Shown: positions 1 through 59,311 of the stretch, one piece after another
Layout: each line of letters starts with the position of its first letter
Position numbering within the stretch: the first letter of the stretch is position 1
Source: Patescibacteria group bacterium
GTDB lineage: Bacteria; Patescibacteriota; Minisyncoccia; Phycocordibacterales; UBA9973
Length of the DNA stretch: 64,000 nt
Assembly: GCA_040390725.1 (NCBI GenBank)
Contig: JAZJXT010000002.1
Coordinates: 28,450 to 92,449, forward strand
Reading direction: 5' to 3'
Program-made: the position numbers and the translations under genes
Notes under the pieces: model-generated
Seen by the model: only the letters and a program-made list of their open reading frames with translations
What the model was told of the DNA's origin: nothing
The model's database searches: none

Positions 1-183
1 CAGTTTCATCCAGAAAGTTCTCCCGGCCCACTCGATACTGATTGGATTTTTGATTACTTTTTAGAAAAGGCGGGGATTTCGCCGAAGCTTAAAAATTTTC
101 TGGCGGACAAAACGGGGCCAGTGCCCGCAGGCGAAAACTTTCAATCTTCAGCGAAATCTAAATACAACAATTATGAAAAATAA
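1..183 (+). CDS. carA: carbamoyl-phosphate synthase small subunit, C-terminal fragment (5' end outside window)
   Basis: Frame-1 translation QFHPESSPGPLDTDWIFDYFLEKAG... matches the conserved CarA C-terminus (FHPE..PGP.D...F..F). TAA at 181-183 overlaps the carB ATG at 173 (translational coupling). Confidence 0.6.
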   Translation, partial: QFHPESSPGPLDTDWIFDYFLEKAGISPKLKNFLADKTGPVPAGENFQSSAKSKYNNYEK

Positions 184-4705: not shown

Positions 4706-4865
4706 ATCTTTTATTTTAAAATTTAAGTGAAAAAATCAAAATCCCCAAAGATTTAGGAACTTGAATTTTTCCACTAAATTTTTTAAATCAAAAAATTTTA
4801 CCCGAATACAATCATAAGGAGCCTTCCATTTAAGGATATTAGTCTTTTATAGCAGAAAGTCAAAT

Positions 4866-5942
4866 TTAGGATTTTTCCAACATATTGAAAACTTTTTCGT
4901 TGGTTAGAACCATCTCGGCGTGCATTTTTGCTCGTTCTGGGTCGGCATCTTTGTAGTGTTCTAGGATATGCGCAACTTCATTCGCAACTTGTTCATCGTC
5001 GGCTTTGATATTTTCTATTTTAGCTATATCGTTTAAAATAAGAGCAAGCTTGGCTTTTTTCTCACCATCTTTGCGGAATTCTTTTTTCAAATCTTCAACT
5101 GTTTTGTTTAAGTGCTTTAAATACTCATCGAATTTCAAACCCATTTGAGTGATGTCGGATTCCATTTTATATAATATTTTACCGACTTCAGATTCAATTA
5201 AAATTTCCGGTAAATCCGCCTTAGTTTCTTCGATTATTTTTTCAATAATTTTTAGACGAGTTTTTTCTTTCGCTTGATTTACTTTTTCGAGCTTTATATT
5301 CTCGCGAAGTTTTTCAGTAAAATCAGCCACGTCCTTGAAGGGTCCGAGAGCTTGCACAAAATCATTATTAAAAGGCGGAAGCTCAGGGGCAAGATTTTTC
5401 TCTTCTTCGGTGGGTGTATGCACTGTGCCGTCTTCGTGAGTGTGAGGTTCTTTCATGTGCATTTTCGGCGCGCGGGATTTGCGGATATCCATAATAGTGT
5501 TTTCCACATCTTCATCAGTCACTTCCACATTTTTTTCTGCATCTGTGGTGTCGGCAATTATTTTCTTTGAGATTTTTTTGTAATCAGGAAGTTTCATTTC
5601 CGGCAAGATTGCGGTTTTGATTTTAAAAGTCAAAGGGTTATTGCGGGCGAGTTTTGTAATCATTATTTCCGGACGGCTGATAGCATCAATTTTATTTTCT
5701 TCCAAAATTTTCGGATAATATTCTGCTAAAGCCATCTCTGCCATTTCTTCCAAAACTCTTATTTCTGGGATATTAGCAGTTAAGATATTCTCTGGGGCTT
5801 TGCCTTTCCTAAAGCCATCCATCTCGAAATTCTCGCCAAGTTTCTTTAAAGCGTTTTTATAATAAGCCTCAAAAACACCGGACTCTATTTCACCCTCCAT
5901 TTCCACCATACTTTGTGGCAATTTGTTTATTTTTATTTGCAT
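4866..5942 (-). CDS. tig: trigger factor (short form, 358 aa)
   Basis: N-terminal ribosome-binding signature GFRKGKAP. Overall TF-like N- and C-domains. Shorter than the canonical ~430 aa (reduced or absent PPIase domain). Confidence 0.8.
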   Translation of the reverse strand: MQIKINKLPQSMVEMEGEIESGVFEAYYKNALKKLGENFEMDGFRKGKAPENILTANIPEIRVLEEMAEMALAEYYPKILEENKIDAISRPEIMITKLARNNPLTFKIKTAILPEMKLPDYKKISKKIIADTTDAEKNVEVTDEDVENTIMDIRKSRAPKMHMKEPHTHEDGTVHTPTEEEKNLAPELPPFNNDFVQALGPFKDVADFTEKLRENIKLEKVNQAKEKTRLKIIEKIIEETKADLPEILIESEVGKILYKMESDITQMGLKFDEYLKHLNKTVEDLKKEFRKDGEKKAKLALILNDIAKIENIKADDEQVANEVAHILEHYKDADPERAKMHAEMVLTNEKVFNMLEKS

Positions 5943-5978
5943 AGGGCTATCCTATACTAAAATAGACTTTTTTTCAAA

Positions 5979-6063
5979 TTTCTACTATAACAAACATATG
6001 TCGACTATCGTAGAAAAGCAAATTGTCTACTATGTCTACATATGGAAGGATAGTAGACAATTT
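5979..6063. promoter_or_regulatory. cluster of GTCTAC-containing repeats including a perfect 14-bp inverted repeat aaattgtctactat / atagtagacaattt (6020-6033 / 6050-6063)
   Basis: Read directly. Additional half-sites tttctactata (5979-5989) and atgtctacata (6033-6043). Located upstream of tig (minus strand) and downstream of ppa. Confidence 0.4.
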
Positions 6064-6084
6064 TGGTGTTTTCGCATGTGGGCA

Positions 6085-9600: not shown

Positions 9601-11094
9601 ATGAATAATAATTTTCAAAAACTTTTAACTTCCGGGATCATTGTTTCATTATTTTTTGTTTTTTTTGGTTTTTATAATTCCGTCAGCTCGAGCGCCATTG
9701 GACGAGGCTCGGGATATGCTTGGTCTGCCAATGATGGTGACGGCATGGGGTGGCTTTCTTTTAATTGTACTTCGGGTGGAAATTGCGGTGATACAAACTA
9801 TGAAGTTACCGCAGATAGAACCACTGGTGATATGACTGGGTATGCTTGGTCTCCTAATTACGGTTGGATTAAATTTGGAGGTTTGTCAGGCTTCCCGACG
9901 GGCGGAGGCACTACTCCTGCCAATGCAAAGCTTGATTATCATACCGGCATCATGACGGGTTGGGCTAGGTTTTGTTCGGTGGCTGCGACTCCTTCACTTT
10001 GTTCAGGATGGCCTGGAACCAATAATACTAATGGAGGATGGGATGGCTGGGTGAGTTTGAATGGTACTGGATATGGAGTCAGCAAGTCAGGTACTAATTT
10101 TACAGGTTTTGCTTGGGGTGGGGCTGATGTTGTCGGCTGGATTGATTTTTCAAATGTTTCTATACGTTATCCTCACAGTCCTGCTTCGGATCCTTTTGTT
10201 ATTTTGACTGTTAATAATCAGACGAATACTGAAGCAGACCCAGTCTTGGTTAATTCCGGAGAGCCATTTGTGTTGAGGTGGGATAGTGAAAATTCTAGTT
10301 CTTGTAATGGTGATTGGACTACTGATGCATTGACTATGCCGGCAGGGTCAGCGATATTGTCAGTAATTACAGACAAGCCTTTACCGAAAACTTACACCAT
10401 TTCTTGTGTTGGACAATCTGGAACCACTGATAGTGTTGTCAATGTCAGTATTGTGCCTTCTGACGTTGTGAATGCTGTTCCAAAACTTAATTTTTACTCT
10501 TCTCCTAATAATTACGTTCTTCTTCCAAATACTAAAACGACCTTGAAGTGGAATTCAAACGTTGCTATGGCTTGTAAGGCAGATAATGCTATTCAAAATA
10601 TTCGATCATCTTCCTCATGGTCTGGTAATGTAGGTGATTTATCTGCTTCGAATTCTTTCCAAAATTCTCTTGTAGTTGATGTTCCAGACAATACTCCATC
10701 TACCGAATATGGCATAGTTTGTACTGATGAAAGTGGTGCAGAATTTAAAAAGCAGGTTTATGTTTCTCAACAATTCCCTCCTGAAGGATTTAATATCGGA
10801 TATGATGCAGTGGATCCAACATCACATACCACCATGCTTCGCTTGAAAGATATCTTTAATCTTACTAGCAGTGATTGTACTACTACGGCATCCGTAGTAG
10901 GTACTGGATGGGATGGCACCATAAAGAGTGATGGTTCTGAGGTAAAGACTGTGACTGTTCCTGGAAGTGGCGCGACTTATACAGCTACATGTACTGGGTT
11001 GAATTCCGGGCTTCCTGTCATTAGATTTATTTCCTTGAAACAAGACAGTACCGCCGGCTCAACACAAATATCACCTTCATATATTGAACATTAA
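9601..11094 (+). CDS. secreted/membrane-anchored repeat protein (497 aa) with GYAWS...GWI.F repeats
   Basis: Signal anchor LLTSGIIVSLFFVFFGFY. Repeated GYAWSANDGDGMGWLSF / GYAWSPNYGWIKFGG / GFAWGGADVVGWIDFS units. Cys-rich C-terminal half. Confidence 0.55.
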   Translation: MNNNFQKLLTSGIIVSLFFVFFGFYNSVSSSAIGRGSGYAWSANDGDGMGWLSFNCTSGGNCGDTNYEVTADRTTGDMTGYAWSPNYGWIKFGGLSGFPTGGGTTPANAKLDYHTGIMTGWARFCSVAATPSLCSGWPGTNNTNGGWDGWVSLNGTGYGVSKSGTNFTGFAWGGADVVGWIDFSNVSIRYPHSPASDPFVILTVNNQTNTEADPVLVNSGEPFVLRWDSENSSSCNGDWTTDALTMPAGSAILSVITDKPLPKTYTISCVGQSGTTDSVVNVSIVPSDVVNAVPKLNFYSSPNNYVLLPNTKTTLKWNSNVAMACKADNAIQNIRSSSSWSGNVGDLSASNSFQNSLVVDVPDNTPSTEYGIVCTDESGAEFKKQVYVSQQFPPEGFNIGYDAVDPTSHTTMLRLKDIFNLTSSDCTTTASVVGTGWDGTIKSDGSEVKTVTVPGSGATYTATCTGLNSGLPVIRFISLKQDSTAGSTQISPSYIEH

Positions 11095-11186
11095 AAATAG
11101 CATGGTATACTTATTATTATAAAAATAAAATTATTATCAAAAAATTATTAGCCCCGACGCAAGTCGATTAAAATATTAAAAAAATT

Positions 11187-14100
11187 ATGAGTCACAAAAT
11201 AAAAACAGCTTTAAAATCAATATTCGTTCTCTCTATGGTCGTGTTGTCAGCGCATGCTTTTGCAGTATGGACACCGCCACCAGCAGGGATACCTCCAGCC
11301 AACAATACTACGGCTCCTGTGAATGTGGGTTCTGTGACTCAATATAAAACCGGTGGGCTCGTCGTCGGAGGTTTTCGTTCTACTGGGCCTGCATTTTTTG
11401 ATGATACTGTGCAATTCAAACAGGTGACGACTTTGCCTGATTGTACTGCGACTGATTCTAGCGGTAATTTTATATACAAAGGGGCACAAATATACTACAA
11501 CGGCAGTATGGAATTTTGTAATGGAGTTACTTGGTCAGTAGTAGGCACCAAAGATTGGCTGACTACAGCAATGGGCAATATTTACTATACAAATGCCGGC
11601 AATGTAGGTATCGGTACGCAAACTCCAGCTACCAAACTCGACGTAGTGGGAACCATTACATCAACTGGCTTGAATGTCGTAGGCAATACGGCGACAACTG
11701 GTTTGACTACGGGTGCAACTGGGCTCACAGTTAGCGGACCACTTTCTATTCCTGACGGTGCATCAGCAGGGAAGGTTTTGACTTCTGATGCTGCTGGTAC
11801 TGCAACATGGCAAGGCTTAATTGCATCTTGGAGTCTTTCTGGCTCTAGTCTTTTCCCTACAGATTTTGCAAATGACAATGTCGGCATCGGCACTGATAGT
11901 CCTGCTGAACGCTTGCAAGTCAGTGGAGGTAATATTTTGACAGATAATAAATGGGCATTTGAAGCTAAAAATGCTTCGGGTGTAAAAGAGGCTTGGATGT
12001 GGCCTAGATATACTGATAATGTAATGTACACTAATTATGGTGCAAATGGTTGGAATATTCGCGACAACGGTGGAGCTCCTGTTATGTTTATGGACAAGAA
12101 TGATAATGTTGGCTTAGGTAATATTCTTCCAACTAATAAACTTTCTGTGACCGGGAATGCGGACTTCTCGGGTAATGTTGGGATAGGAACAAAAACTCCA
12201 AGCGCTCAGCTTTCTGTACTTGGTAATATTGCGATAGTAAGAGATCCAGGTTTTACAAATTACTCCCCAGGATCATCTTTGTCTCTTGAGTCTTGGAGTG
12301 ATGGAACTTCCACTAGTCATGATGATGATGTAGGGGCACAAGTTAGCGCTGCTGATTGGCTGGCTGGTACTGATGGTGCTCCGGGCACAGATAAAATTGT
12401 AAAGTATGCTTGTCCTTCCGGTAGTGGTGGTAGTACTTATCATAATGATTATTACAGAATTGACCTCGGTTCAGGAGCTTATGATTATCGAAAAATCAGT
12501 GATGTTTTTTGTGTTGCCGGTACAGATAAATTCTCTTTGAGAACCGACAGAGGCAATTTGCAATTTTTAGATACTAATTCTAATCCTAAATTTATTATGA
12601 CTCAGTCAGGTAATGTCGGTATCGGCGTCACTGCTCCTGCTGTAAAGCTTGACGTAAACGGCGCAGTAAAATTCGGCGATGATACTACGATTGTTTGTGA
12701 TACCACTCATCCGCAAAACGCAGGAATACAGAGATATGACAAAGTAGATAATATAATGAAAGCTTGTAACGGCACCACATGGATAGCTGTCGGAGCAAAT
12801 GCTGCACCTTCATCTTCACTCTGGTCTGCAGGTACGGGTGATGATGTTTTCAAAACACTAAATACTGGCAATACTGGTATCGGAACCCAAACTCCAGCAG
12901 CAAAATTGCATTTGAGCGGAGGTAATTTCTTGATGGATAATAGCGCGACTTTGCAAGCTTACAATCACGCTGTGCCGGCGATGATTAATGATTGGATGTG
13001 GCCTAGATACCATGATCCTGTTTCCGGTACTGACATCATGTACACTAATTTTGATGTAAATGGATGGAGCATTCGCAACAATACTGCGCACCCTGTGATG
13101 TTTATGAAAGACAATGGCAATGTCGGTATCAACACAATAAACCCGGTAAACAAGCTTTCAGTTAACGGAGATGTTAATATCGGTGATTCTATAATTCCTG
13201 GAAAGCTCGGTATAAATACCACGACTCCTACTTCTTCTTTGGATGTAAATGGAGACATCACTGCTTCTAGGGGTGTTTCACTTGTGAATAGTTCAGCGCT
13301 TAGTTTTTATTCTGGCACAAAGGGAACAAGTGTATATGAGCTTCCATATTTGCCTGCGACGGGCAATGATACTTGTGGCACTTTAAATTCTGATACTGAT
13401 GGTGATGGCAGTGTTGTTCCAAACAACGATCGTGTCATGTGTGATGGTTTAATTTCAGGACCTAGATGTTATGATCGTGTTCATCAAAGCACTGGAGATG
13501 TGGGCGCTTATGTGACATGTGTGGCTGATGCGGGTACTTATACTATTGCAAACAATACTAATAATTTACAATTTTCAAATGGCACAGGCACTAATGCGGG
13601 TGTCAGAGTCACTTTAGATAAAGACGGCAAGATGGGCGTGGGTACGACGATTCCACAGGCAAAACTCGACGTCAACGGCGGAATTAAATTCGGTTTAGAT
13701 GGCTTGGCTACGGATACTATTTGTACTGTTGCCGGTGTGCAGAGGTACAATGGTGCTATGCAATATTGTGATGGAACAAATTGGGTTCCTGTCGGGTCTC
13801 CTATGTTTTGGAATGTTATCGGTACGGGTTCTGACCTCGCTACTATAAATACTGGTAATGTCGGCATCGGTACGGGCACGAATCCTCCATTAGCAAAGCT
13901 TGATGTAAATGGTGCAGTTAAATTCGGTGATCAAACTGTTGTAAAAGATATTACTACTCCAAATTCAAATGTGCCGGGCTTTCCAAATGTCACTTGTAAT
14001 GTAGCCGGTACCCAGAGATACAATTCTGTTTCTGCAAAGATGGAATCTTGCGATGGTCATTATTGGTCAAGCGTTGGAGATAAATCTCTTTGGAATGCTG

Positions 14101-17100
14101 ACACGACTGGTGTCATGGTTTCTTTGGCTACTCCTGGACAAAAAGTCGGTATCGGCACAGCTACTCCTCATTCTGCTCTCGAAGTTGTCGGTAATTTACA
14201 AATCACAAGCCCTATCAGTGGTCCTAGTTCCAACAGTATAATTTTAGGAAGTGGAAAGTATGACAATTATGGTGGATGGCCTCTTATTCCAATGCTGACA
14301 ACTTCTGGTGATCCATTACCAGCAGACCCTGGATCAAGTGCGGATACTTGTGACAGTAATGAAAATGCTGTATATAGTTGTCCGGATAGTGTTACAAAGA
14401 ATTGTACAGATGTTACTTCGGGTACATTTAAGTCTTCCACTAGTAGTGCTCCTAGGGACGCATGGTATAAGCGAGATGTGTCTTGTGTTTCTCCTGATGA
14501 GCCTTTATATCAAATACAAAATAATTCTGGGGATTTGAAATTCATAAATAATAATGGTCCGCAAGTTACAGTTAATCAAAATGGCAATGTCGGCATAGGC
14601 ACTACCACTGCTCCGGGTGCAAAACTCGATGTAAACGGTGGCATCAAATTCGGCCTTGATGGTTTGGCTACGGATACTACTTGTACTGTTGCCGGTGTGC
14701 AGAGATATAATCCTGCTAATTCAAATGGAATGCAATTTTGTGATGGCTCACACTGGAAAGATGTCGGTTCTCCTGCTACATGGAATGAAGTTGCTGGTGT
14801 GCTTTCTCCATTTACTCTGACAGATAAAATCAGTATTGGTAATGTTGCTCCTTTTGAAATAGATCCAGGCAATGTTTCTTCAAATTCCTCAAATGCTGGA
14901 TTCCTTCGTTTTGGTGATAATTCTGGATGGAAATTCCATTTTGGAAGAGCTAAAGAATCCACTTCTTCCGGTTTCAATACTGACACTACCGGTTCTATTA
15001 TGACGATGCAAGACAATGGCAATGTGGGTATTGGTACTACATCTCCGAAGGCAAAATTTGAAGTTGCAGGAAATAGTGGAGATGACTTAATTAACATTAG
15101 AAATCTTTCTACCAGTCAGCCAAATGCAACTTCTTGGGCATTGCGTCCGGTTACAAATAGTAAGACTGCTTATGCTACAGATTTGCAATTCTTCGAACAC
15201 GGACTAGACGGAGCTAGAGTTACCTTCCAAGGTAATGGTGGAAATGTAGGTATCGGTACGACAAATCCTACCGCTAGGCTCGATGTTGCCGGAGCAGTTA
15301 AATTCGGTGATGAGCACGTAGTTACTACTTGTGATTCTACTACGAATGGTACACAAAGGTATAATAGTTCTGGAGTAATGCAATGGTGTAATGGTGTAAA
15401 CTGGCAGAGTTATGGTAGTGGTGTGGGCTGGATAGCTAATGGCAATGATATTTATAATGGTAACAATGCTGGAAATGTAGGGATAGGCACCGGAGCAACT
15501 CCTGTAAAAAATAAACTTTTTGTTAATGGTGATGTTGGTACTTCTGCTTCTATTATTAGTGGCGGTATGATGTATTTGCAAGGCAATGATTATGAACATT
15601 TAGGTAATTTGAAATATGTCAGCCAAGGAATCTTTCTCGGAGGAGATGGATTGAGTCATGGAGATATTTCATGGCTTCCAAATTCCAATACCCTTAACCT
15701 AGGTACAGGTGATGATCCTACAAAGGCAGCTAATTATCCTGATCAATATGGCCCTGTAAATCTTTCCTTGGGTGGACAAATCAGAATCGGTGGCTCTACT
15801 GCGGTTTTTGATTACAATGGACACAGTGTTACTACTGTCCCTCATCCTCCTACGAAGGGGCAAGTTTTGACAGCGTTAGATTCTACCGGTCTTGCTTCTT
15901 GGCAAGCACCCCAAGCTGGCCCTTGGTCAGTTGTAGGTGATGATATTTCAAATTCAAATACCGGAATGGTTAAAGTGAATGGTTCAATAGCTACAATATT
16001 GGGATTAAATAATAATGCGAACATCAGCCAGTATGATTTGGGAGCAAACAAGATTGGTGCCGCTACTTCTATTTATTCTTATGGACGCATTTGTGCCGGA
16101 AATAATTGGGGAACTTGTGACAGTGCTACTCAGTCCGGTGTAGTTATAGAATCTTCCGGTCAAGGTAAATTTGGAGCCGTTGATATTTCTGGGAATGGGC
16201 CGTCATACTTTGCTGCCGGGAATCTCGGAGTAGGCACAAATTCTCCTAACGCTAAACTTGATGTGAGCGGTGATGTGCAGGTTTCAGATGGTGTTTCTGT
16301 GGTAGATAGCTCAGCGGTTAGTTTTTATTCCGGTGATAAACATATCAACTCTCATACGGATTGGACTAATAAAAGTTCAAATAGTGCGACGCGTACCCCT
16401 GATACTTGTCCTGGTGCTGATACAAAACTTAAATTTGAGTGTATAGGTTCTAATACTGTGAATTCTTGTACAGACACCGCTGATTATCAGGAATATACTT
16501 CCGGACAACTTACCTTTGATGGTTGGGCAACTCGCACAGTTTCTTGTGTGGCTACTACCGGTGTTTATTCTGTAAAGAATAATAATAGCACTTTGCAATT
16601 CTTGAATGATAAAGGCACTGCTAAGTTAACTTTGGATCAAAATGGCAATTTGGGTGTAGGTGGCAATGTTAGTCTAGGGGCTGGCGGTAGTCTTCTTCAG
16701 ACTTCACCATTATACTTACTCGGTGATGCTAATGGATATACTGCTCTTAATTTAGACCCTAGCCAGTACGCCAGCCAGGGTATTCGTTTCGGAGGAGATG
16801 GAAAATCTCACGGAGACATGGCATGGATTCCAGGCTTAAATACATTTTATCTTGGAACAGGAGATAATCCGCAAGATATGCTCACAGGTGTTCCAAATAG
16901 ATACGGTCCGGCTAATCTTACTTTGGCGGGTGCTCTATCTATCGGCGGGCAAATTACAATTGCCGGCGGTTCCCCTGGTGCCGGAAAAGTTTTGACATCA
17001 GACAGTACAGGTAAGGCGACTTGGCAACAGCTCCCTCCTTCATCTGTATCTCCTTGGCTAGTAGGAACGAATCCAAACACACATAATACTACTATTAGTA

Positions 17101-23210: not shown

Positions 23211-23975
23211 ATGAAGAAGATAGTTATAGGCAATTGGAAAATGAATCCGCTTTCTAGTAAAGAAGCGGAGAAAATTTTTTCCGGTATTGTTAAAAATTTA
23301 AAAGTTAAAAAAACAGAGGTGGTTATTTGCCCGCCGTTTTTGTATTTGGAAAAGCTGGGGAAAATTTCAAAGAAAGTTTCCTTGGGAGCACAGAATGCTT
23401 TTACAGAAGATGGTGGTGCGTACACTGGGGAAGTTTCTGTAAAAATGCTCGCGAATATGGGTGTGAAGTATGTGATATTAGGACATTCAGAAAGGCGCAG
23501 TCCGCCGGCCGGCGGAGGGGAATCTAATCAAGATGTAAATAAAAAAATAAAAGCATCACTATCTGTTGGGCTTATTCCGGTAGTTTGTATTGGAGAAAAA
23601 GAACGGGATGAAAATCACGAGTATTTGAATTTTGTGCGTGAACAAGTCGAGCAAGGTTTTACAGGAATTTCCAAGAATTTAATTTCAAATATTATTATTG
23701 CTTATGAGCCTGTATGGGCTATCGGCAAGAATGCAAAGAGAGAGGCGTCTCCTGCGGAGTTTCGCGAGATGAGTATTTTTATCAGGAAAATTTTGTCTGA
23801 TAAATTTGGCGCAAAAAATATTGAAAAAATCAGAATTATTTACGGTGGTTCCGCGCATCCGGAAAATGTTGCTGGATTTTTAGCAGAAGGCGCGGATGGT
23901 TTTTTGCCAGGCAGGGATAGTTTGGATCCGAAGAAGTTTTTATCAATTGTTAATACAACAGAAAGTATCTTTTAA
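23211..23975 (+). CDS. tpiA: triosephosphate isomerase
   Basis: IGNWKMN, ILGHSERR and AYEPVWAIG motifs. Confidence 0.9.
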   Translation: MKKIVIGNWKMNPLSSKEAEKIFSGIVKNLKVKKTEVVICPPFLYLEKLGKISKKVSLGAQNAFTEDGGAYTGEVSVKMLANMGVKYVILGHSERRSPPAGGGESNQDVNKKIKASLSVGLIPVVCIGEKERDENHEYLNFVREQVEQGFTGISKNLISNIIIAYEPVWAIGKNAKREASPAEFREMSIFIRKILSDKFGAKNIEKIRIIYGGSAHPENVAGFLAEGADGFLPGRDSLDPKKFLSIVNTTESIF

Positions 23976-24069
23976 AAACCGCACATAATTTTCTGCTGAA
24001 AATTTGCTATGTTCGGCTCGTCAGCCTGCGCAATGCTTTTTAAAAAATACTTTCTGTTTTCTTAAAGTT

Positions 24070-25218
24070 ATGAATAGTATAAAAAGTTTAAAAAACATAA
24101 AAGGTAAAAAAGTTCTTGTGAGAGTTGATTTCAATGTGCCTGTTTTGAACGGTAAGGTGGAAGACGATTTCCGAATACAAAAAGCATTGCCAACAATTAA
24201 ATTTTTACAGAAAAAAGGCGCGAAAGTTATTTTAATAACGCACTTGGGTAAAGGCGGGGAAACTCTTTTGCCGGTGGAAAAAGTTTTGAATAAATATGTA
24301 AAAGCTGTTTTTGTGGCTGATATTGTGGGAGAAAAAGCAGAAAATGCTGTGGATGCTATGAAAAATGGTGATGTAATTTTGTTAGAAAATTTACGTAATA
24401 ATGACGGCGAGAAAAATTGTGATAAAACTTTTGCGAAAAGTTTGGCAAAATTCGGGGATATTTATGTGAATGAAGCCTTTCCTGTGTCACACAGAGCTGA
24501 TGCTTCTATTGTTTTGTTGCCGAAGCTTTTGCCGGCGTATGCGGGTTTGCAGTTAGAAAATGAAGTGAAAAATCTTTCGAAAGTTTCCAAGAGCGTAAAG
24601 CATCCATTTCTTTTTATTTTAGGCGGTGCGAAATTTTCTACCAAGATGCCTTTGATTAAAAAATATTTAAAAACTGCGGACAATATTTTTGTTGGCGGAG
24701 CATTAGCGAATGATTTTTTGAAAGCGAAGGGTTATGAAGTTGGCAAATCTTTGACGGACAATGGTGATTTTGGAATTAAGAAATTTATAAATAATAAAAA
24801 ACTTATTTTACCGGTGGATGCTGTAGTCACCTCACCCCAGCCCTCTCCTTATAAAGGAGAGGGGGAATTCGTAAATAAAAAAGCAAGTGAAGTAAAAAAA
24901 GATGAAATTATTTTAGATGTCGGCAGTGAATCAGTAAAAAATTTAGCACCGATTATTAAAAAAGCAAAAATGATTCTCTGGAATGGGCCTTTGGGAAAAT
25001 ATGAAGAAAAAGAATGCAGAGCGACAAAAGAAGTTTTGAAAATGGTGATGAATTCAAAAGCTCAAGTGACTATAGGTGGCGGAGACATAGTCGCTGTTTT
25101 ATCTCAAATGAAAATTAATACTGACAAAAGAAAAAATTTATTTGTATCTACTGGCGGAGGAGCAACTCTCGACTTTCTTGCTAATGGCACCTTGCCAGGA
25201 ATTAAAGCGTTAAAATAA
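24070..25218 (+). CDS. pgk: phosphoglycerate kinase
   Basis: VLVRVDFNVP and ILWNGPLG motifs. Start moved to the ATG at 24070 (MNSIKSLKNIKGKKVLVRVDFNVP). Contains the in-frame palindromic insert at 24828-24865. Confidence 0.9.
   Translation: MNSIKSLKNIKGKKVLVRVDFNVPVLNGKVEDDFRIQKALPTIKFLQKKGAKVILITHLGKGGETLLPVEKVLNKYVKAVFVADIVGEKAENAVDAMKNGDVILLENLRNNDGEKNCDKTFAKSLAKFGDIYVNEAFPVSHRADASIVLLPKLLPAYAGLQLENEVKNLSKVSKSVKHPFLFILGGAKFSTKMPLIKKYLKTADNIFVGGALANDFLKAKGYEVGKSLTDNGDFGIKKFINNKKLILPVDAVVTSPQPSPYKGEGEFVNKKASEVKKDEIILDVGSESVKNLAPIIKKAKMILWNGPLGKYEEKECRATKEVLKMVMNSKAQVTIGGGDIVAVLSQMKINTDKRKNLFVSTGGGATLDFLANGTLPGIKALK
24828..24865 (+). repeat. RPE-like palindromic element, copy 1 (in-frame within pgk; encodes TSPQPSPYKGEGE)
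   Basis: cacctcaccccagccctctccttataaaggagaggggg; core is a perfect 10-bp inverted repeat ccctctcctt/aaggagaggg. Identical reverse-complement copy at 62919-62955 and a 2-mismatch copy at 57294-57329. Confidence 0.6.
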
Positions 25219-26978: not shown

Positions 26979-28727
26979 ATGCAACAAAGTGAGTTATTGA
27001 TGAAATTATTAGAAAAAAGAGGCATAACTATCCCTGCCGAAATTGAGAAATTTTTAAACTCCAGCTACGAGAGCGATATGCACGACCCTTTTTTAATGCG
27101 CGATATGGAAAAAGCTTGCGTGCGGATTTTTGAGGCGATGGAAGCCAAAGAAAAAATACTGGTTTATGCGGATTATGATTGCGATGGCATTCCGGGCGCG
27201 GTTATTTTAAATGATTTTTTTAATAAATTAAATTATCAAAACTTTGAGGTGTATATTCCGCAGAGGAATTCCGAGGGATATGGTTTGAATTTGGAAGCGG
27301 TAAAAAAAATGGATGAGGATAGGGTGAAACTTTTGATTACTATTGATTTAGGTATCACAGCCGTGGCGGAAATAGCTCAAGCGGAAGTGTATGGCATAGA
27401 CGTGATAATTACTGACCACCATATTCCTCATGAAGTATTGCCGAGGGCTTATGCTATTTTGAATCCAAAAGTTGATAACTATCCGGAGAAAATGTTGTGC
27501 GGGTCTGGGGTTGTTTTTAAATTAGTGCAAGGGTTTTTGAAAAAGTATGGCGATTACTATCGCGGGGGCGGAGTTTATAATTTTTTGCCTGCGGAACTCG
27601 CCTCCGCTTCGCTACAGCTCAAACAGTCCTCGTCTGCAAAATTACAAACTCCGCCCCCGCGAGACTGGGAGAAATGGCTTCTCGATATGGCAGGGCTCGC
27701 TACACTTTCTGATATGGTGCCGTTATTGGGTGAGAACAGGGCGATTGCGAGTTTTGGAATAAAAGTTTTTAGGAAATCTCCGCGTCCGGGTTTGCAAAAA
27801 CTTTTAGCGAAAATGAATATAGAGCAGAAATATATTTCGGAAGACGATATAGGTTTTATGGTAACGCCACGACTCAATGCAGCATCAAGAATGGATGATC
27901 CGCGTCGAGCTTTTGAATTACTGGCTACGCAAGATGAAACGGAAGCCGGAGTATTGGCAAACCATTTGACGAAAATAAATGATGACAGGAAAAAAATCGT
28001 TGCGGGGATAATGAAAGATGTAAATAAAAAATTCGACAAAAGAGAAATAAAAAATGTGATAGTGATAGGGCATCCGGAGTGGCGGGTCGGGGTTCTCGGT
28101 TTGGTTGCGGGGAAAATTTGTGATGAACATAAAAAGCCGGTTTTCGTGTGGGGGAAAGATGAAAATGATTGCATTAAAGGCTCGTGTCGTTCTGACGGTT
28201 CTGTATCTGTGGTGGAACTTATGACGGAAACAAAAGAATATTTCTTGGATTTCGGCGGACACGAAGGCGCAGGAGGTTTTACTGTGCACAGTGAAAAAAT
28301 ACATTTCTTGGAAGAAAATTTATCTCAATCTTTTCAAAAAATTATAGAGAAAACTATAGTTAAAGAAAAAGTATCGCTTCCAGGCTTTGATGTTAAATTA
28401 AATTTAGGTGATGTAAATATGAAAAATTGGAAAGAGATAGAAAAAATGGCGCCATTTGGTTGTGAAAATCCAAAACCAGTTTTTCTTTTTGAAAATGTAA
28501 AAATAGAAAAATTAAAAAAATTTGGAAAAAACAATTCACAAGAACATTTGGAGATTATTTTTTCTGATGCTACAGGTAAAGCTAAAGCGATTGCATTTTT
28601 CTCCGGCTTGGAATCTTTCAAAAAATCATTAGCCGAAAATTTAAATGTAAACTTATTGGCAACTTTTGATTTATCCCGTTTCCTAAGGAGAGAAGAGCTA
28701 AGATTAAGAATTGTTGATATTTTTTAA
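26979..28727 (+). CDS. recJ: single-stranded-DNA-specific exonuclease RecJ
   Basis: DHH motifs (YADYDCDGI, ITDHH) and DHHA1 region (GGHEGAGG). Contains a 102-bp in-frame palindromic insert at 27561-27662. Confidence 0.9.
   Translation: MQQSELLMKLLEKRGITIPAEIEKFLNSSYESDMHDPFLMRDMEKACVRIFEAMEAKEKILVYADYDCDGIPGAVILNDFFNKLNYQNFEVYIPQRNSEGYGLNLEAVKKMDEDRVKLLITIDLGITAVAEIAQAEVYGIDVIITDHHIPHEVLPRAYAILNPKVDNYPEKMLCGSGVVFKLVQGFLKKYGDYYRGGGVYNFLPAELASASLQLKQSSSAKLQTPPPRDWEKWLLDMAGLATLSDMVPLLGENRAIASFGIKVFRKSPRPGLQKLLAKMNIEQKYISEDDIGFMVTPRLNAASRMDDPRRAFELLATQDETEAGVLANHLTKINDDRKKIVAGIMKDVNKKFDKREIKNVIVIGHPEWRVGVLGLVAGKICDEHKKPVFVWGKDENDCIKGSCRSDGSVSVVELMTETKEYFLDFGGHEGAGGFTVHSEKIHFLEENLSQSFQKIIEKTIVKEKVSLPGFDVKLNLGDVNMKNWKEIEKMAPFGCENPKPVFLFENVKIEKLKKFGKNNSQEHLEIIFSDATGKAKAIAFFSGLESFKKSLAENLNVNLLATFDLSRFLRREELRLRIVDIF
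27561..27662 (+). repeat. 102-bp element with 20-bp terminal inverted repeats inserted in-frame in recJ
   Basis: cgcgggggcggagtttataa (27561-27580) vs ttacaaactccgcccccgcg (27643-27662): 19/20 complementary. 102 bp = 34 codons, encoding RGGGVYNFLPAELASASLQLKQSSSAKLQTPPPR. Confidence 0.55.
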
Positions 28728-34838: not shown

Positions 34839-35261
34839 ATGAAAATAAAAGTTAAAAAATTAAAAGATGGGGCGAAGTTACCGACTTATCATCATCCGGG
34901 TGATGTCGGTATGGATATGTATGCCATGGAGGAAATTATTGTTGGCCCTGGTGAGCACGCGCGTATATGGCACGGTTTTGCTTTGGAATTCCCGATAGGA
35001 TATGGCGCATTGGTCATGGATAAGGGCAGTATTTCAAAGGCAGGATTGCATACTATGGGGGGAGTTTTTGATGCCGGGTATAGGGGTGAATACAATACGC
35101 ATTTGGTAAATTTATCTGACAAGCCTTATACTATAGAAGTGGGGGATAAAGTTTCGCAACTTGTGATCACACCTATTGTTGTTGCTGACTTAGAAGAAGT
35201 TGATTCACTTAGCGAGTCGGCTCGCGGTGAGGGAAGGTTTGGGAGTACGGGTAAAAAATAA
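34839..35261 (+). CDS. dut: dUTP diphosphatase
   Basis: Five dUTPase motifs including C-terminal RGEGRFGSTG. Confidence 0.9.
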   Translation: MKIKVKKLKDGAKLPTYHHPGDVGMDMYAMEEIIVGPGEHARIWHGFALEFPIGYGALVMDKGSISKAGLHTMGGVFDAGYRGEYNTHLVNLSDKPYTIEVGDKVSQLVITPIVVADLEEVDSLSESARGEGRFGSTGKK

Positions 35262-35262
35262 A

Positions 35263-37050
35263 ATGAGTATAAAAAATAAGCTAGAAAATTTAATAAAAGA
35301 TGCGTTAAAAAAGTTAGAAATGAATTCGCCAGACGGCGAAGTTAATTTTGTCGTAGAACATCCGGAAGATTTTAAGAATGGGGATTACTCTACGAATGTG
35401 GCATTGGTTTATGCTAAGAAATTAAAAATGAAACCTGTTGATTTGGCGGAGAAAATTTTAGCAGAACTTTATGAAGATACAGATGAAAAGGGCATTAAGG
35501 GTGTGGAAAATATAGAGATAGCCGGCGCGGGGTTTATAAATTTTTATTTAACACGTGAATTTTTCAGTGATTCTATAAAAGATATTTTACACAAGAATGA
35601 AGACTGGGGCAGGAATAATTTATTGGAAGGAAAAAAAGTAATGGTGGAATACACTCAGCCGAATCCTTTCAAGCCTTTTCACATAGGGCATTTGATGAGC
35701 AATGCCATCGGAGAGTCAGTTTCGAGAATTGTAGAATTCTCCGGCGCGAAAACTATCCGTGCGAATTATCAGGGTGATGTTGGTCCGCATATTGCGAAAG
35801 CGATTTATGGGATTATGAAAGACCCTGAGTACTTAGAGGCAAGACCTCTCAGTAGAGGTCTTGCCTCTAAGTCGGCATCTTGGATTGGGGAGTGTTATTC
35901 AAAAGGCAGTGATTTGTATGACAATGATCCGGAAGCAAAAAAAGAAATTGATGTAATAAATAAAAAAGTTTACGACAAGAGCGATGAAGAAATAAATAAA
36001 GTTTATGATTGGGGGAGGAAAGTCACCCTCGAAGCATTTGAAGAACTTTATAAAATTCTCGGCACGAAATTCGACTATTATTTTTTTGAAAGCGAGATGG
36101 CACCGATAGGTGAAAAAATTGTCCGCGCAAATGTGCCGAATGTTTTTGAAGAATCCGACCCCACACCAGAGCAAGCTCAGTACGGGGCAAGAGGCGCTAT
36201 TATTTTTCGTGCTGAGAAGTATAACCCTAAATTGCATACGCGAGTGTTCTTAACTTCACAAGGCATACCGCTTTATGAGACGAAGGAAATAGGTTTGACG
36301 ATGACGAAATTTGAAAAAGAAAATCCTGATATTTCTATTGTTGATACAGCTATTGAGCAAGGCGAATATATGAAAGTTGTTCAGCAGGCTATCGCACTCA
36401 TGCATCCGGAATTGGAAAAGAAAATGTTGCATATCACGCACGGTATGATGCGCCTCGCATCGGGCAAAATGTCTTCCCGAAAAGGTAACGTAGTCACAGG
36501 TGAGTCATTGTTGCGAGATTCTATGGATGTCGTATTGGAAAAAATCCAAGATAGAGATTTTACCGAAGAAGAAAAGAAAAAAGTCTCAGAAGTCGTCGGC
36601 GTGTCGGCGCTCAAATATTCTATTTTGCGTTCTTCTGTCGGCTCGGATATTGTTTATGATTTTGATAAATCAATTTCGTTTGAAGGGGATTCCGGCCCAT
36701 ATTTACAATATTCCGCTATCCGCGCGAAATCAATCCTCGCAAAAGCCAAAAGTGAAAATTTGGAGGCTAAACCTCCAAAAGAAGTTCCAGAACAAATTTC
36801 AGATTTAGAAAAAATTCTTTATCGTTTCCCCGAAGTTGTCGCGCGCTCATATGAAGACCTCGAACCGCACAATATCGCCACATATTTGACCGAGCTTTCA
36901 TCATCCTTCAATTCTTTTTACGCCAATACACAAATCTTAAACAATGAAGATAAATTTTCTTCATATTATTTAGCACTCACCAAAGCATTTTTCATCACAA
37001 TGCAAAACGGCCTTTGGCTTTTGGGAATTAAATTGCCGGAGAGGATGTAA
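35263..37050 (+). CDS. argS: arginyl-tRNA synthetase
   Basis: Start at the ATG at 35263 (MSIKNKLENL), 1 nt after the dut stop. PNPFKPFHIGHLMSNAIG (HIGH), DALR-type C-terminus. Confidence 0.9.
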   Translation: MSIKNKLENLIKDALKKLEMNSPDGEVNFVVEHPEDFKNGDYSTNVALVYAKKLKMKPVDLAEKILAELYEDTDEKGIKGVENIEIAGAGFINFYLTREFFSDSIKDILHKNEDWGRNNLLEGKKVMVEYTQPNPFKPFHIGHLMSNAIGESVSRIVEFSGAKTIRANYQGDVGPHIAKAIYGIMKDPEYLEARPLSRGLASKSASWIGECYSKGSDLYDNDPEAKKEIDVINKKVYDKSDEEINKVYDWGRKVTLEAFEELYKILGTKFDYYFFESEMAPIGEKIVRANVPNVFEESDPTPEQAQYGARGAIIFRAEKYNPKLHTRVFLTSQGIPLYETKEIGLTMTKFEKENPDISIVDTAIEQGEYMKVVQQAIALMHPELEKKMLHITHGMMRLASGKMSSRKGNVVTGESLLRDSMDVVLEKIQDRDFTEEEKKKVSEVVGVSALKYSILRSSVGSDIVYDFDKSISFEGDSGPYLQYSAIRAKSILAKAKSENLEAKPPKEVPEQISDLEKILYRFPEVVARSYEDLEPHNIATYLTELSSSFNSFYANTQILNNEDKFSSYYLALTKAFFITMQNGLWLLGIKLPERM

Positions 37051-55834: not shown

Positions 55835-57290
55835 TTTTTACCTTACAACCACATTGCCTTATGTAAATGCAGATCTGCATTTAGGGCATGCGCTTGAATT
55901 TGTGCGTGCAGATGTCATCGTGAGATATAAAAAACTCGCAGGCTTTGATGTGTATTTTAATACCGGCACGGATGAACACGGTATGAAGATATTTGAAAAG
56001 GCTAAAGAGAAAAATATTTCTGCACAAGAATTTGTAGATCAAAGTTTTTTAAATTTTAAAGAATCGGTTAAAATTTTCGGCATGGTTGATGATTTGCATT
56101 ATATACGCACTACTGATAAAAAACATGAAAACATTGCGAAAGATTTTTGGATGAAATGTTTTAACAATGGGTATATTTACAAGAAAAATTATGAGACGAA
56201 ATATTGCGTGGGCTGTGAATCAGAAAAGACTGATTCTGACCTCGTAAATGGCGAATGCCCTGATCATCCAGGTAAAAAGCTCGAAATAATCCAAGAAGAA
56301 AATTACTTTTTTAAGTATAGTGAATTTACTGATAAGTTAAATAAATTTTATGCTGAGCGTCCTGATTTTGTCGTGCCGGATTTTCGTTTTAATGAAATAA
56401 AAGCTTTTGTCGAAAGAGGATTGCAGGATTTTTCTATTTCAAGATTGAAAACAAAAATGCCTTGGGGGATAGAAGTGCCGAACGATAGTGACCATGTGAT
56501 GTATGTGTGGTTCGATGCTTTGACGAATTATATCTCGACTTTGGCAGATGATGGAGTAGATACTCTCGATGCACTGGTTGCTAGTGAAAAATTCCAAAAA
56601 TATTGGGTTAATGGAAATCCGACGCAATATTGCGGGAAAGATAATTTACGTTTTCAGTCTGCGATGTGGCAAGCGATGCTCATGTCTGTAAATATTCCTA
56701 ATTCGCATCAGATAGTTATCAATGGATTTATTACCGGTGACGGGGGAGTAAAAATGTCTAAAAGCTTGGGTAATGTTGTAGACCCCAAAGATATTGTAGC
56801 CGAATATGGCATTGATGCTTTGCGATACTTTTTACTCTCAGAAGTTTCTTCTTTTGAAGATTCGCCTTTTACTATCGAGCGTTTTAAAGAATGTTATAAT
56901 GCCAAACTCGCGAATGGTTTGGGTAATTTAACGAGCAGAATTATGAAAATGGCAGAGACTAATTTAATTTCACCAGTTTCCATAGATGATAATTTTTATC
57001 CGAAGTTAGACGTAGGAGTTGATTTAGAAATGTTTGACTTATCCAATGCTATGAAAAAAATTTGGGCGTACATGAGTACTATGGATGGTCACATACAAGA
57101 CAAACAACCTTTTAAATTAATTAAAACAGATAAAGAAAACGGAGTTAAAGAGATTACAATACTTACACAAATGCTTTTTTGTGTTGCCAAAGAGCTTGCT
57201 TCTTTTATGCCTGAAGCTTCGGAAAAAATATTAAAATTGATTAAAGAAAATAAGAAGCCTGAGCAGCCTTTATTTCAGAGGAAAGATTAA
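55824..57290 (+). CDS. metG: methionyl-tRNA synthetase (short form)
   Basis: ATG at 55824 (MKNSFYLTTTLPYVNADLHLGHA; HLGH); zinc knuckle CVGCE; KMSKSLGN. Confidence 0.9.
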   Translation: MKNSFYLTTTLPYVNADLHLGHALEFVRADVIVRYKKLAGFDVYFNTGTDEHGMKIFEKAKEKNISAQEFVDQSFLNFKESVKIFGMVDDLHYIRTTDKKHENIAKDFWMKCFNNGYIYKKNYETKYCVGCESEKTDSDLVNGECPDHPGKKLEIIQEENYFFKYSEFTDKLNKFYAERPDFVVPDFRFNEIKAFVERGLQDFSISRLKTKMPWGIEVPNDSDHVMYVWFDALTNYISTLADDGVDTLDALVASEKFQKYWVNGNPTQYCGKDNLRFQSAMWQAMLMSVNIPNSHQIVINGFITGDGGVKMSKSLGNVVDPKDIVAEYGIDALRYFLLSEVSSFEDSPFTIERFKECYNAKLANGLGNLTSRIMKMAETNLISPVSIDDNFYPKLDVGVDLEMFDLSNAMKKIWAYMSTMDGHIQDKQPFKLIKTDKENGVKEITILTQMLFCVAKELASFMPEASEKILKLIKENKKPEQPLFQRKD

Positions 57291-57293
57291 GAA

Positions 57294-57329
57294 CCTCACC
57301 CCAACCCTCTCCTTATTAAGGAGAGGGGG
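57294..57329 (+). repeat. RPE-like palindromic element, copy 2 (intergenic, metG-tatD)
   Basis: cctcaccccaaccctctccttattaaggagaggggg; 2 mismatches to copies 1 and 3; perfect 10-bp stem. Confidence 0.55.
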
Positions 57330-57343
57330 AGGAAGAAAAGATT

Positions 57344-59244: not shown

Positions 59245-59257
59245 TTAATTAATAAGT

Positions 59258-59298
59258 CCCGATGTCGGACATATGGGAACCATATGTCCGACATCGGG
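59258..59298 (+). promoter_or_regulatory. perfect 19-bp inverted repeat (3-nt loop) between ssb and rpsR
   Basis: cccgatgtcggacatatgg gaa ccatatgtccgacatcggg; 13 nt upstream of the rpsR ATG. Confidence 0.5.
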
Positions 59299-59311
59299 GC
59301 AAAAAATACTT

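Follow-up and report, generated by a model that had tools for sequence, protein, structure and literature searches.

The window analysed here (the whole stretch of 64,000 nt) carries within recJ a palindromic segment that is best read as a copy of a widespread hairpin element. We consider it probable (roughly 0.6) that recJ carries it as a passenger, a DNA element that forms a hairpin, is non-autonomous and is translated through.

The segment and its host gene

The host protein has Pfam domains DHH (59-189), DHHA1 (359-450) and RecJ_OB, matches solved RecJ structures in the PDB (down to E=7e-77), and finds its best homologue in RecJ of Candidatus Nomurabacteria (81% identity). Its catalytic residues are invariant, and its catalytic motifs are intact despite the insert. 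Reading of the RecJ ORF bears out the original prediction of 34 codons inserted in frame: the 102 nt at 27561-27662 encode 34 extra residues (RGGGVYNFLPAELASASLQLKQSSSAKLQTPPPR, residues 195-228). The extra residues are also evident by comparison, since alignments with PDB RecJ structures are continuous to residue 195 and restart at about 232-238, and about 100 of the 120 closest RecJ orthologues, which read ...KKYGEYF-KIK[DE]G-[AW]EKW, lack the segment. By Pfam coordinates the insert does lie between DHH and DHHA1, as had been proposed; structurally, however, it falls within the catalytic DHH domain, upstream of the conserved ATLSD motif, and not in an interdomain linker. In an AlphaFold2 model of the protein (mean pLDDT 83), residues 197-222 have pLDDT below 50 and are set between helices 175-195 and 230-244, so the insert is predicted to form a disordered loop.

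At the level of DNA, the segment is richer in GC than the surrounding gene, as had been noted (0.50-0.57 versus about 0.30-0.48 elsewhere in recJ), and the 20-bp terminal inverted repeats are real (27561-27580 on the plus strand, 27642-27661 on the minus strand with 1 mismatch). The repeat is longer than was claimed: its 25-nt arms (Table 1) are complementary at 24 of 25 positions (96%) and lie 53 nt apart, giving an element of 103 bp. The lone mismatch in the arms is A/C on the plus strand and G-U on the minus strand. Each strand folds much more stably than shuffled sequences, the z-scores being -7.3 and -9.4 for RNA and -7.4 and -8.1 for DNA.

Table 1. Features of recJ and of the element within it (positions in the window). 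A1, alignment of 19 copies.
Feature	Position	Strand	Remarks
recJ	26979..28727	+	582 aa; host of the element; from ORF list, Pfam, PDB matches and best homologue
P1, left arm of outer stem	27560..27584		GC-rich, lineage-specific
Inner arm AATTTTTTGC	27579..27588	+	5' edge of the extended core; near-invariant across 19 copies
Core 5' half CTGCGGAACTCG	27589..27600	+	P2 5' strand, bulged A, internal loop; invariant in A1; within the pattern of at least 120 stretches
P3, variable apical hairpin	27600..27618	+	contains GCTTCGC (minus strand GCGAAGC); 12 nt above usual length
Core 3' half CTCAAACAGTCCTCG	27618..27632	+	internal loop and P2 3' strand; invariant in A1; sole match within the window
3-nt bulge and inner arm TCTGCAAAATT	27633..27643	+	kept as KCTGCAAAAT in subfamily
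P1', right arm of outer stem	27638..27662		pairs with left arm

The centre, rather than the GC-rich arms, is the functional unit

The 20-bp terminal repeat had been put forward as the signature of a family. It does not serve as one: no second copy exists in the 64-kb window at up to 3 mismatches (none of 100 shuffled sequences matched), and the repeat is different in every orthologue. What is conserved instead is a centre of 45-55 nt, in the order AATTTTTTGC-CTGCGGAACTCG-[mini-hairpin]-CTCAAACAGTCCTCG-TCTGCAAAATT, while the GC-rich arms differ in every species and at every locus. This conservation is seen in an alignment (A1) of 19 copies, some in the recJ of Nomurabacteria and others on unrelated GC-rich contigs. 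The length of P3 ranges from 7 to 33 nt among copies.

The arms vary together. In 24 of 27 arm pairs both sides have changed, and paired cells make up 89% of the arm helix and 91% of the whole structure, whereas sliding the partners lowers the latter figure to 35-50%; none of 500 shuffles reached the observed level of pairing. P2 covaries as well, appearing in variant copies as GCGAAT/ATTCGC, GCCTCGT/ACGAGGC, GATGTG/CACATC and GGAGG/CCTCC. The functional unit is the centre of about 55 nt, with its covarying P2, its invariant loop A-ACTCG...CTCARACAG and its small P3.

Of the closest RecJ orthologues, which come from Nomurabacteria and related lineages, about one-sixth have this centre at the same recJ site, and not always in the same direction. 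L138, on the one hand, and L155 and L146, on the other, have the same arms, flanks that are 81-85% identical, and centres that are exactly reverse-complemented; the reversed centre also occurs in P0119/L003. Since both orientations are found between identical arms in close relatives, the centre evidently inverts in place. The peptide that flipped alleles have at that site (...AAEDCLSEASSAGKK...) is unrelated, and the reading frame is open in all recJ alleles, whichever way the centre lies. It is this preservation of frame that points to translation of the element. It also makes removal unlikely, as an element that is removed has no need of a frame. An intein or self-splicing intron was considered and rejected, the 34 codons having no domain match and no match to an intron model.

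Might the insertion simply be a functional, lineage-specific part of RecJ, a peptide loop under selection, with the palindrome incidental or a by-product of codon choice? A core peptide, NFL[PS]AELA.LKQSS[ST]AK, is indeed kept at one site in about 20 RecJ orthologues, and the frame is always preserved. Nevertheless, the idea is highly improbable: it is contradicted by the flipped alleles with their unrelated peptide, conservation extends to third-codon positions, the same DNA is non-coding in other phyla, and disorder is predicted for the loop. Under the passenger reading, the recJ copy may do nothing useful and persist through the tolerance of the loop.

Relative to the empty alleles L166 and L167, filled alleles lack four native codons (KIKD), which are missing and not duplicated, and filled and empty alleles are patchily distributed on a rough neighbor joining tree. 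This pattern is not neatly accounted for by a single ancient insertion followed by precise losses, nor by a series of independent insertions. The boundaries (...GATTACTA / element / GACTGGG...) show no direct repeat, and so no sign of the target-site duplication for which a check had been suggested.

The element has no further copies in the 64-kb window, and the suggestion of two element families in the genome is not supported. Over about 170 kb of related Nomurabacteria DNA, one or two copies were counted, none outside recJ; L001, with a second copy in its recJ, is the only exception to single-copy status. In being single in the window and nearly so in relatives, the element is unlike a proliferating repeat. 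As for the origin of the outer arms, the appearance of having been copied from local flank is suggestive in L003, L005, L006 and L042 and unconvincing for the GC-rich arms in the window; derivation from local flank sequence is conjecture.

Distribution across bacteria and the search for an agent

The same core is found in at least 120 species-genome stretches representing at least ten phyla. Copies are mostly intergenic, often as inverted pairs, others solitary, and most have no long ORF spanning them. In CPR bacteria, copies lie in frame within genes encoding IleRS and a GT2 glycosyltransferase and within recJ at two further sites. This breadth bears on whether the segment is native to recJ. 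A comparable segment is present in related RecJ proteins, and the terminal repeat has no other copies, two observations that the original prediction had said would count against an insertion; these do not show the segment to be native. The same core is found in non-coding DNA and unrelated genes across ten phyla.

Other searches returned little. BLAST of the core against plasmids gave only degenerate, unannotated relatives on Ralstonia megaplasmids, against phages nothing, and against E. coli genomes only 19-nt chance matches in a restriction-modification gene; the proteobacterial double element had no BLAST match among plasmids. Viral contigs yielded 4 matches among 2.9 million, which indicates that the element is not phage-borne. 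A phmmer search with the 34-aa insert matched only two giant repetitive proteins, and a word-index search of proteins yielded no candidates. The literature on in-frame palindromic elements or MITEs in Patescibacteria gave no description of the element, and 10-12-mers of the core matched only unrelated primers in full-text articles.

The segment had originally been likened to a MITE or to a Rickettsia palindromic element (RPE). The likeness to RPEs stands insofar as the segment is an extra, coding-tolerant palindrome that is read through, but two hallmarks of a MITE, a terminal repeat shared among copies and a target-site duplication, are absent, and the window has a single copy. A classical MITE, moved by cut-and-paste, defined by its terminal inverted repeats and mobilised by a DDE transposase that binds those repeats and leaves a target-site duplication, would fit the size of about 100 bp, the terminal inverted repeat and the lack of coding capacity. 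It might also seem to be favored by a proteobacterial pair of copies flanking an IS4-like DDE transposase. These two copies differ in their arms, however, and hence are not the ends of the IS4-like element. Moreover, the terminal repeat occurs once in the window and each locus has its own, there is no direct repeat at the boundary, and no transposase recurs near copies. The MITE reading is largely refuted.

When ORFs lying up to 2.5 kb from about 170 copies were clustered, no transposase or integrase recurred. A tblastn search of the window and of 1.25 Mb of loci (partial genomes), with L002 Y1 as the one query, found no Y1 transposase homologue beyond the query's own gene. That gene, beside recJ in L002, had raised the possibility of a Y1/RAYT link, for which the sampled DNA gave no support: it is flanked by its own unrelated REP family. 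The analysis turned up no enzyme that might mobilise the element, and likewise no donor copy, no target-site duplication and no recent insertion polymorphism, so that it is the distribution of copies from which we infer mobility.

Might the unit be an RNA? The segment could be a cis-acting structure in recJ mRNA, controlling processing, translation or stability, or else an antisense small RNA gene within recJ. The core would then be an RNA motif not described before, in which tandem G.A pairs beside P3 and a 5-6-nt bulge look like a K-turn, and a conserved protein would bind it. Three covarying helices around an invariant asymmetric internal loop are the classic signature of a functional RNA, and so strong a conservation of the core across phyla is easier to understand through function than through selfishness. 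The strand antisense to recJ is also the better folder, at -60.8 kcal/mol versus -48.5 kcal/mol for the mRNA strand. The asymmetry extends to other copies (related ones included, so that the counts are not of independent data points): with arms-only folding, the opposite strand is better in 119 copies and worse in 44 (33 versus 5 in low-GC genomes).

Against an RNA, the centre flips at the same site in close relatives, so it has no fixed orientation on either the mRNA or the antisense strand, and copies of the module are also found within unrelated genes and, between genes, as inverted pairs. The element is flanked by no promoter-like site, and its one terminator-like match is no more than shuffled controls give. 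Rfam has no match in the window at gathering thresholds and, even at E<=10, only chance-level ones (mir-935 at 17 bits, where the gathering score is 73, and an lncRNA fragment). The apical C-GNA-G loops, which form the P3 tip on the opposite strand in 92 of 180 copies, are a motif of DNA stability and not of RNA (PMC13037366). All told, a structured RNA is an unlikely explanation. Resemblances, judged by eye, to hammerhead, group II intron domain V, SRP, boxA and attC were set aside, their defining nucleotides missing and no covariance model matching; the window has no tRNA or tmRNA.

Known systems and a possible mode of action

RPEs are palindromes of about 100-150 bp that lie in frame in housekeeping genes, are confined to Rickettsia, and fall into families by overall sequence. 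Like them, the present element is palindromic, in frame in conserved genes (RecJ, IleRS, GT2), a surface segment that is presumably translated through, and found at orthologous sites across species; like them, too, it occupies a tolerant region (pLDDT below 50 between two helices), although the host is a member of the Patescibacteria. Compared with RPEs as described, it differs in that only the apical 45-55 nt are conserved, the arms are locus-specific, the range is at least ten phyla, and the centre flips. RPEs were reportedly described by Ogata et al. in 2000.

MITEs (e.g., Correia/NEMIS and Nezha) are likewise small, non-autonomous and capable of forming hairpins, with some copies co-transcribed or in frame. 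Copies of a MITE share terminal inverted repeats that match the parent IS, and they make target-site duplications; the recJ element has neither shared terminal repeats nor a target-site duplication. Integron attC sites resemble it in being imperfect palindromes (60-140 nt) with covarying stems, and they function as a folded single strand. They have, however, a conserved base (RYYYAAC/GTTRRRY) and a variable tip, and form same-orientation arrays beside intI, whereas our element lacks R''/R' boxes, conserves its tip, and occurs solitarily or as inverted pairs.

REP/REPIN sequences, which go with RAYT (Y1, HUH) transposases, are also short imperfect palindromes, mostly intergenic, often alternating in orientation (as BIMEs) with IS insertions among them, and probably act as ssDNA hairpins with the enzyme supplied in trans. 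REPs are species-specific, and a conserved GTAG/GTGG tetranucleotide marks the 5' base of their 20-40-nt palindrome (PMC2817692). The present element has no such head, its conservation is apical and cross-phylum, and no association with RAYT was found in the sampled DNA. Finally, C-GNA-G is an extra-stable DNA mini-hairpin motif of ssDNA priming sites, as in phage G4 ori, RSF1010 ssiA and N4 early promoters (PMC13037366). Those signals, like our element, place an apical C-GNA-G mini-hairpin on one specific strand inside a longer imperfect hairpin, a sequence likeness established for the triloop motif only; each of them is one functional site on a phage or plasmid replicon, unlike our dispersed chromosomal repeats.

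The strand asymmetry and the GNA loops are indirect signs, by which single-stranded DNA is more likely than RNA as the acting form of the module. The hairpin element probably acts when folded and single-stranded, the strand concerned being CGAGGACTGTYTGAG-[C-GNA-G hairpin]-CGAGTTCCGCAG, and perhaps an enzyme encoded elsewhere recognises the module and copies or moves it. Selection may be no more important for maintaining the palindromic arms than hairpin-templated correction or recombination. Purely selfish DNA is not usually conserved between phyla to the extreme seen in this core, and the module could have a host function.

A more ambitious proposal, possible but tentative, is that the module of about 50 nt represents an undescribed structured single-stranded nucleic-acid element that crosses phyla, spreading without a cis-encoded enzyme, gaining or rebuilding locus-specific palindromic arms, once inserted, through hairpin-templated copying of local sequence, flipping in place, and colonising in frame the essential genes of the gene-dense CPR bacteria. 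Its structure would consist of a covarying P2, an invariant CT-GTYTGA-G[P3]C-G-AG loop with tandem G.A pairs, and the C-GNA-G mini-hairpin. RecJ would have been struck repeatedly, and RecJ is a ssDNA exonuclease, which might be expected to attack a single-stranded intermediate.

If the passenger reading holds, the streamlined genomes of CPR/Patescibacteria would tolerate selfish hairpin DNA in essential genes, as does Rickettsia. Gene calling, protein alignments and phylogenies would be affected, because 20-65 residues of RecJ, IleRS and other proteins would not be the product of protein evolution. The flip of the centre would be a natural palindrome-mediated inversion in coding sequence, giving two alternative peptides from one locus. 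A module of 45-55 nt, conserved nearly to the letter and absent from Rfam, would imply a very widespread partner (enzyme or host process) whose targets are folded single strands, and the sequence of the module would offer a handle for pulling down that partner in culturable carriers. These are found in Dechloromonas (Dechloromonas hankyongensis), Ralstonia, Niveibacterium and Uliginosibacterium.

The element and its host gene

The open reading frame that carries the element is, as judged by its sequence, RecJ: PDB RecJ structures match it down to E=7e-77, and its nearest homologues belong to Candidatus Nomurabacteria and Paceibacteria (Patescibacteria, candidate phyla radiation, CPR). The original prediction described a 20-mer inverted repeat with one mismatch, read through in frame and richer in GC than the gene around it. 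All of this was found, and the repeat proved longer than claimed (see table). The element has a GC fraction of 0.50-0.57, above that of most of recJ, and reads as RGGGVYNFLPAELASASLQLKQSSSAKLQTPPPR within the stop-free frame. Both of its strands fold far better than shuffled controls, with RNA and DNA parameters alike. A search for other copies of the proposed terminal repeat found none in the 64-kb window at three mismatches or fewer. A covariance model (R1) was built from a 19-sequence alignment (recJ genes of Nomurabacteria together with unrelated GC-rich contigs) and run over the window, where it gave the recJ element 93 bits and the runner-up 30 bits; the element is thus single-copy there. 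Chance as the origin of the repeat is excluded by shuffle controls, as none of 100 yielded an extra match to the 20-mer and none of 500 reached the covariation observed in the alignment.

Positions of the features discussed (in the window unless a locus of a relative or other carrier, L-number, is named)
Feature	Location	Details
recJ	26979-28727 (+)	582 aa
DHH domain	residues 59-189	Pfam
DHHA1 domain	residues 359-450	Pfam
RecJ_OB domain	residues 471-580	Pfam
20-mers	27561-27580; 27642-27661	1 mismatch
Full inverted repeat	27560-27584 / 27638-27662	25 nt per arm, 24/25 complementary, 53 nt apart
36-bp family	24823-24867; 57282-57337; 62911-62966	ACCTCACCCCAGCCCTCTCC-TTATAA-GGAGAGGGGGA; 88-96% alike, one inverted, each with a 10-bp palindrome
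90-nt hairpin	71-160 (minus)	just upstream of ATG at 172
Perfect 19-20-bp hairpin	35829-35872	TACTTAGAGGCAAGACCTCT-CAGT-AGAGGTCTTGCCTCTAAGT; within 618-aa stop-free frame (35194-37047 +)
Perfect 21-bp hairpin	59255-59303	GAA triloop (…CATATGG-GAA-CCATATG…)
Palindrome	23950-24065	29-nt inverted arms, 90% complementary, around 58 nt
Diverged direct repeats	~9900-16900	55-104-nt blocks, ~650-1600 nt spacing, 60-86% alike (families D1-D7, D10, D15)
Second core copy in recJ	L001 11340-11440	~residue 459, DHHA1-OB linker
bAvd and RVT_1 genes	L001 8197-9570	just upstream of HIT gene and recJ
Y1_Tnp gene	L002 5408-6061	IS200/RAYT-like, directly 3' of recJ; region 4807-6083
Palindrome ACTTGGGAGTT[C/G]AACTCCCAAGT	L002 4809, 5363, 5575, 6061	flanks and interrupts Y1_Tnp gene
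Inverted pairs, Betaproteobacteria	L047 1815-3566; L065 70-1390; L059 3050-4355; L073 1798-5404	1-3.5 kb varied cargo
Degenerate relatives	L129 1380-1760	GGAGGC-AAACTCG-CTTCG-CTCAGACAG-CCTCC
In-frame copy, isoleucyl-tRNA synthetase	L046, L095	Saccharibacteria
In-frame copy, GT2 glycosyltransferase	L042	Paceibacterota; reversed orientation
In-frame copy, RecJ of a Microsaccharimonas	L076	other site, ~25 residues upstream

Alignment to solved RecJ structures stops by residue 195 and restarts at 232-238, leaving an unmatched stretch of about 36-40 residues in the window RecJ as against 2-7 in the structures. The segment is absent also from about 100 of the 120 closest homologues, which read ...KKYGEYF-KIK[DE]G-[AW]EKW, while about 20 have an insert at the same place, confirming the extra residues expected relative to orthologues. 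By Pfam limits the insert does lie between the DHH and DHHA1 regions, as had been claimed. In an AlphaFold2 model (mean pLDDT 83, pTM 0.81), however, it falls inside the catalytic DHH domain and not in the DHH-DHHA1 linker: residues 197-222 have pLDDT below 50 and lie between helix 175-195 and helix 230-244, so the insert is a loop predicted to be disordered. The catalytic residues of RecJ are invariant in the alignment.

A conserved centre that inverts between changing arms

In the DNA of eight recJ homologues, the inserts share a near-invariant nucleotide sequence, AATTTTTTGC-CTGCGGAACTCG-[short hairpin]-CTCAAACAGTCCTCG-KCTGCAAAAT, third-codon positions included, and outer arms that are unlike in each species retain their complementarity. 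In the 19-sequence alignment, 24 of the 27 outer-stem pairs have changed on both sides, and paired cells make up 89% of the outer stem and 91% of the whole structure (35-50% when partners are slid). The conserved part of the element is thus its centre, not its ends. A classical MITE defined by its terminal repeats, the reading originally proposed, is refuted by the unshared arms and by the lack of any visible target-site duplication at the boundaries; what stands of that interpretation is the palindromic passenger tolerated in frame.

The centre occurs in either orientation. In L003, the DNA of RecJ homologue P0119, the element is read on the opposite strand (NFVAEDCLSEASYAGKKL). Among further recJ alleles obtained by a metagenome scan, L146 and L155 have the centre in the 'sense' orientation (...IFLPAELASLRQSSAAKTL...), and L138, L143 and L164/165 have it reversed (...VLAAEDCLSEASSAGNKIL...). 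L138 and L155 have the arms AAGAGAGAGGCGGAGGGTAAA...TTTACCCTCCGCCTCTCTCT in common and show 81-85% identity in the recJ flanks downstream; their centres are exact reverse complements save two substitutions. The two alleles thus differ by an inversion of the centre between its inverted arms, through recombination or template switching, and do not stem from independent insertions. Both orientations are stop-free, and the core, read by eye, has five open frames out of six. The flipped alleles, together with non-coding copies, refute a functional peptide loop of RecJ.

At related loci the element is found in recJ only. In the closest relative, L001, the same recJ gene has a second core copy; a lineage-specific core variant (..GCTACAGAAAA) is common to both copies, and their arms differ. 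The counterpart of that second site in the window RecJ, residues 461-466, is modelled with low confidence.

Distribution, mobility and origin

A scan for CTGCGKAACTCG-N(2-32)-TCANACAGTCCTCG, with one genome per species, found the core in at least 120 genome stretches. Carriers among the matches listed include Gamma- and Betaproteobacteria, Nitrospirota, Spirochaetota, Bacillota (Lachnospiraceae), Actinomycetota (Coriobacteriia), Bacteroidota, Myxococcota, Planctomycetota, Melainabacteria and several CPR lineages, and in every case listed the core is the tip of a longer hairpin with lineage-specific arms. In the same matches, most non-CPR copies have no long ORF spanning them, and many form inverted pairs 150-3500 bp apart, enclosing an IS4-like DDE transposase (its flanking copies with unlike arms), a membrane protein or unknown ORFs. 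The pairs tabulated for Betaproteobacteria, whose cargo comprises an IS4-like DDE transposase, an 8xMP membrane protein, an unknown 236-aa protein and two ORFs of about 460 aa, may be either cargo mobilisers or merely insertion hot spots. Among the CPR copies listed, many lie in frame within genuine genes. Counting the second copy of L001, RecJ has been struck at three sites at least, which is striking but anecdotal. Only four copies are in viral contigs, the phage collection has no core match, and E. coli genomes have only short chance matches. Degenerate relatives of the module are present on Ralstonia megaplasmids. In that of R. pseudosolanacearum GMI1000 (L129), these form an inverted pair inside long composite palindromes for which the record has no annotation; such degenerate matches occur in 128 Ralstonia plasmid records.

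No recurrent transposase or integrase family lies within 2.5 kb of about 170 copies. The sole Y1 gene nearby is that of L002, a Nomurabacteria-related genome. It has no homologue in the window, and the palindromes around it are a set of its own; gene and palindromes make up a REP/RAYT-like arrangement that has no relation to the recJ element. The bAvd and reverse-transcriptase genes of L001 are the signature of a diversity-generating retroelement.

Filled alleles (recJ genes with the element) lack four native codons (KIKD) and keep the following glycine, relative to the empty alleles L166 and L167. In a rough NJ tree they fall in at least seven clusters, with empty ones nested among them. The missing codons and this patchy pattern do not fit comfortably either one ancient insertion with precise losses or repeated independent insertions; allelic recombination between filled and empty genes is a plausible third option. 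One arm is similar to the native flank in L003, L005, L006 and the GT2 gene of L042, which suggests that hairpin-templated copying of neighbouring sequence may rebuild the arms. Such likeness is not evident for the window's own arms.

Form of the module and other palindromes

By a relaxed pattern search, the P2 helix of the core covaries (CTGCGGA/TCCTCG becomes GCGCA/TGC, GCGAAT/ATTCGC, GCCTCGT/ACGAGGC, GATGTG/CACATC or GGAGG/CCTCC), and the invariant portion is A-ACTCG-[P3]-CTCARACAG, where P3 is an apical hairpin of 7-33 nt. On the opposite strand, CT-GTYTGA-G[P3]C-G-AG, a pair of potential sheared G.A pairs would close the helix beside a 5-6-nt bulge, a geometry resembling a K-turn. Of 180 copies, 92 have C-GNA-G as the P3 tip on that strand, most commonly GCGAAGC, an extraordinarily stable DNA mini-hairpin of single-stranded DNA priming sites and N4 promoters (PMC13037366). 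When only the arms are folded, the same strand is the better in 119 copies as against 44 for the other, and in 33 as against 5 in low-GC genomes, related copies in both counts not being independent. The bias in folding and the C-GNA-G tips point, indirectly, to a strand-specific single-stranded form of the module, likelier DNA than RNA. Covariation and the invariant loop would suit a structured RNA, but a centre that flips in place, the variety of genomic contexts, the lack of promoter-like signals and an apical loop of the DNA type speak against that reading.

The recJ element is best read as a passenger copy of a hairpin module that is widespread and conserved at its apex. The arms stay palindromic while the centre flips, and a RecJ loop predicted to be disordered tolerates the element in frame. 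In this it is like the RPEs of Rickettsia, which are palindromic passengers tolerated in frame; the intergenic copies are similar to REP/BIME-type repeats. Defining tests for MITEs, REPs, attC sites and every Rfam family came out negative. No description of the element was found in the searchable literature, though one may exist elsewhere. There is a real chance, unproven as it is, that the module is something more fundamentally new.

The window has other palindromes. Of the 36-bp family mentioned in the original prediction, the first copy lies within a stop-free frame of 409 aa and the third within one of 189 aa, so this family, too, may have copies in frame in genes. The hairpin at 71-160 has a centre that begins with TTTTCGCCTGCGG, in which 12 of 13 bases agree with TTTTTGCCTGCGG of the recJ element, and that ends ...GTCCGCCAGAAAATTT; elsewhere the core is different. 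R1 gives this hairpin 30 bits, its minus strand folds much better than the plus strand (-41.9 as against -27.3 kcal/mol), and it may be a degenerate relative. The 19-20-bp hairpin, which belongs to another sequence family, is a further candidate for an in-frame palindrome. The 21-bp hairpin, in a stretch of short ORFs that is probably intergenic, is not followed by a T-run on the + strand. The palindrome with 29-nt arms, whose minus strand folds better, has no spanning ORF and overlaps the start of a stop-free frame (23989-25215). The diverged direct repeats may reflect one very large repetitive protein, or several, with modules of about 1 kb.
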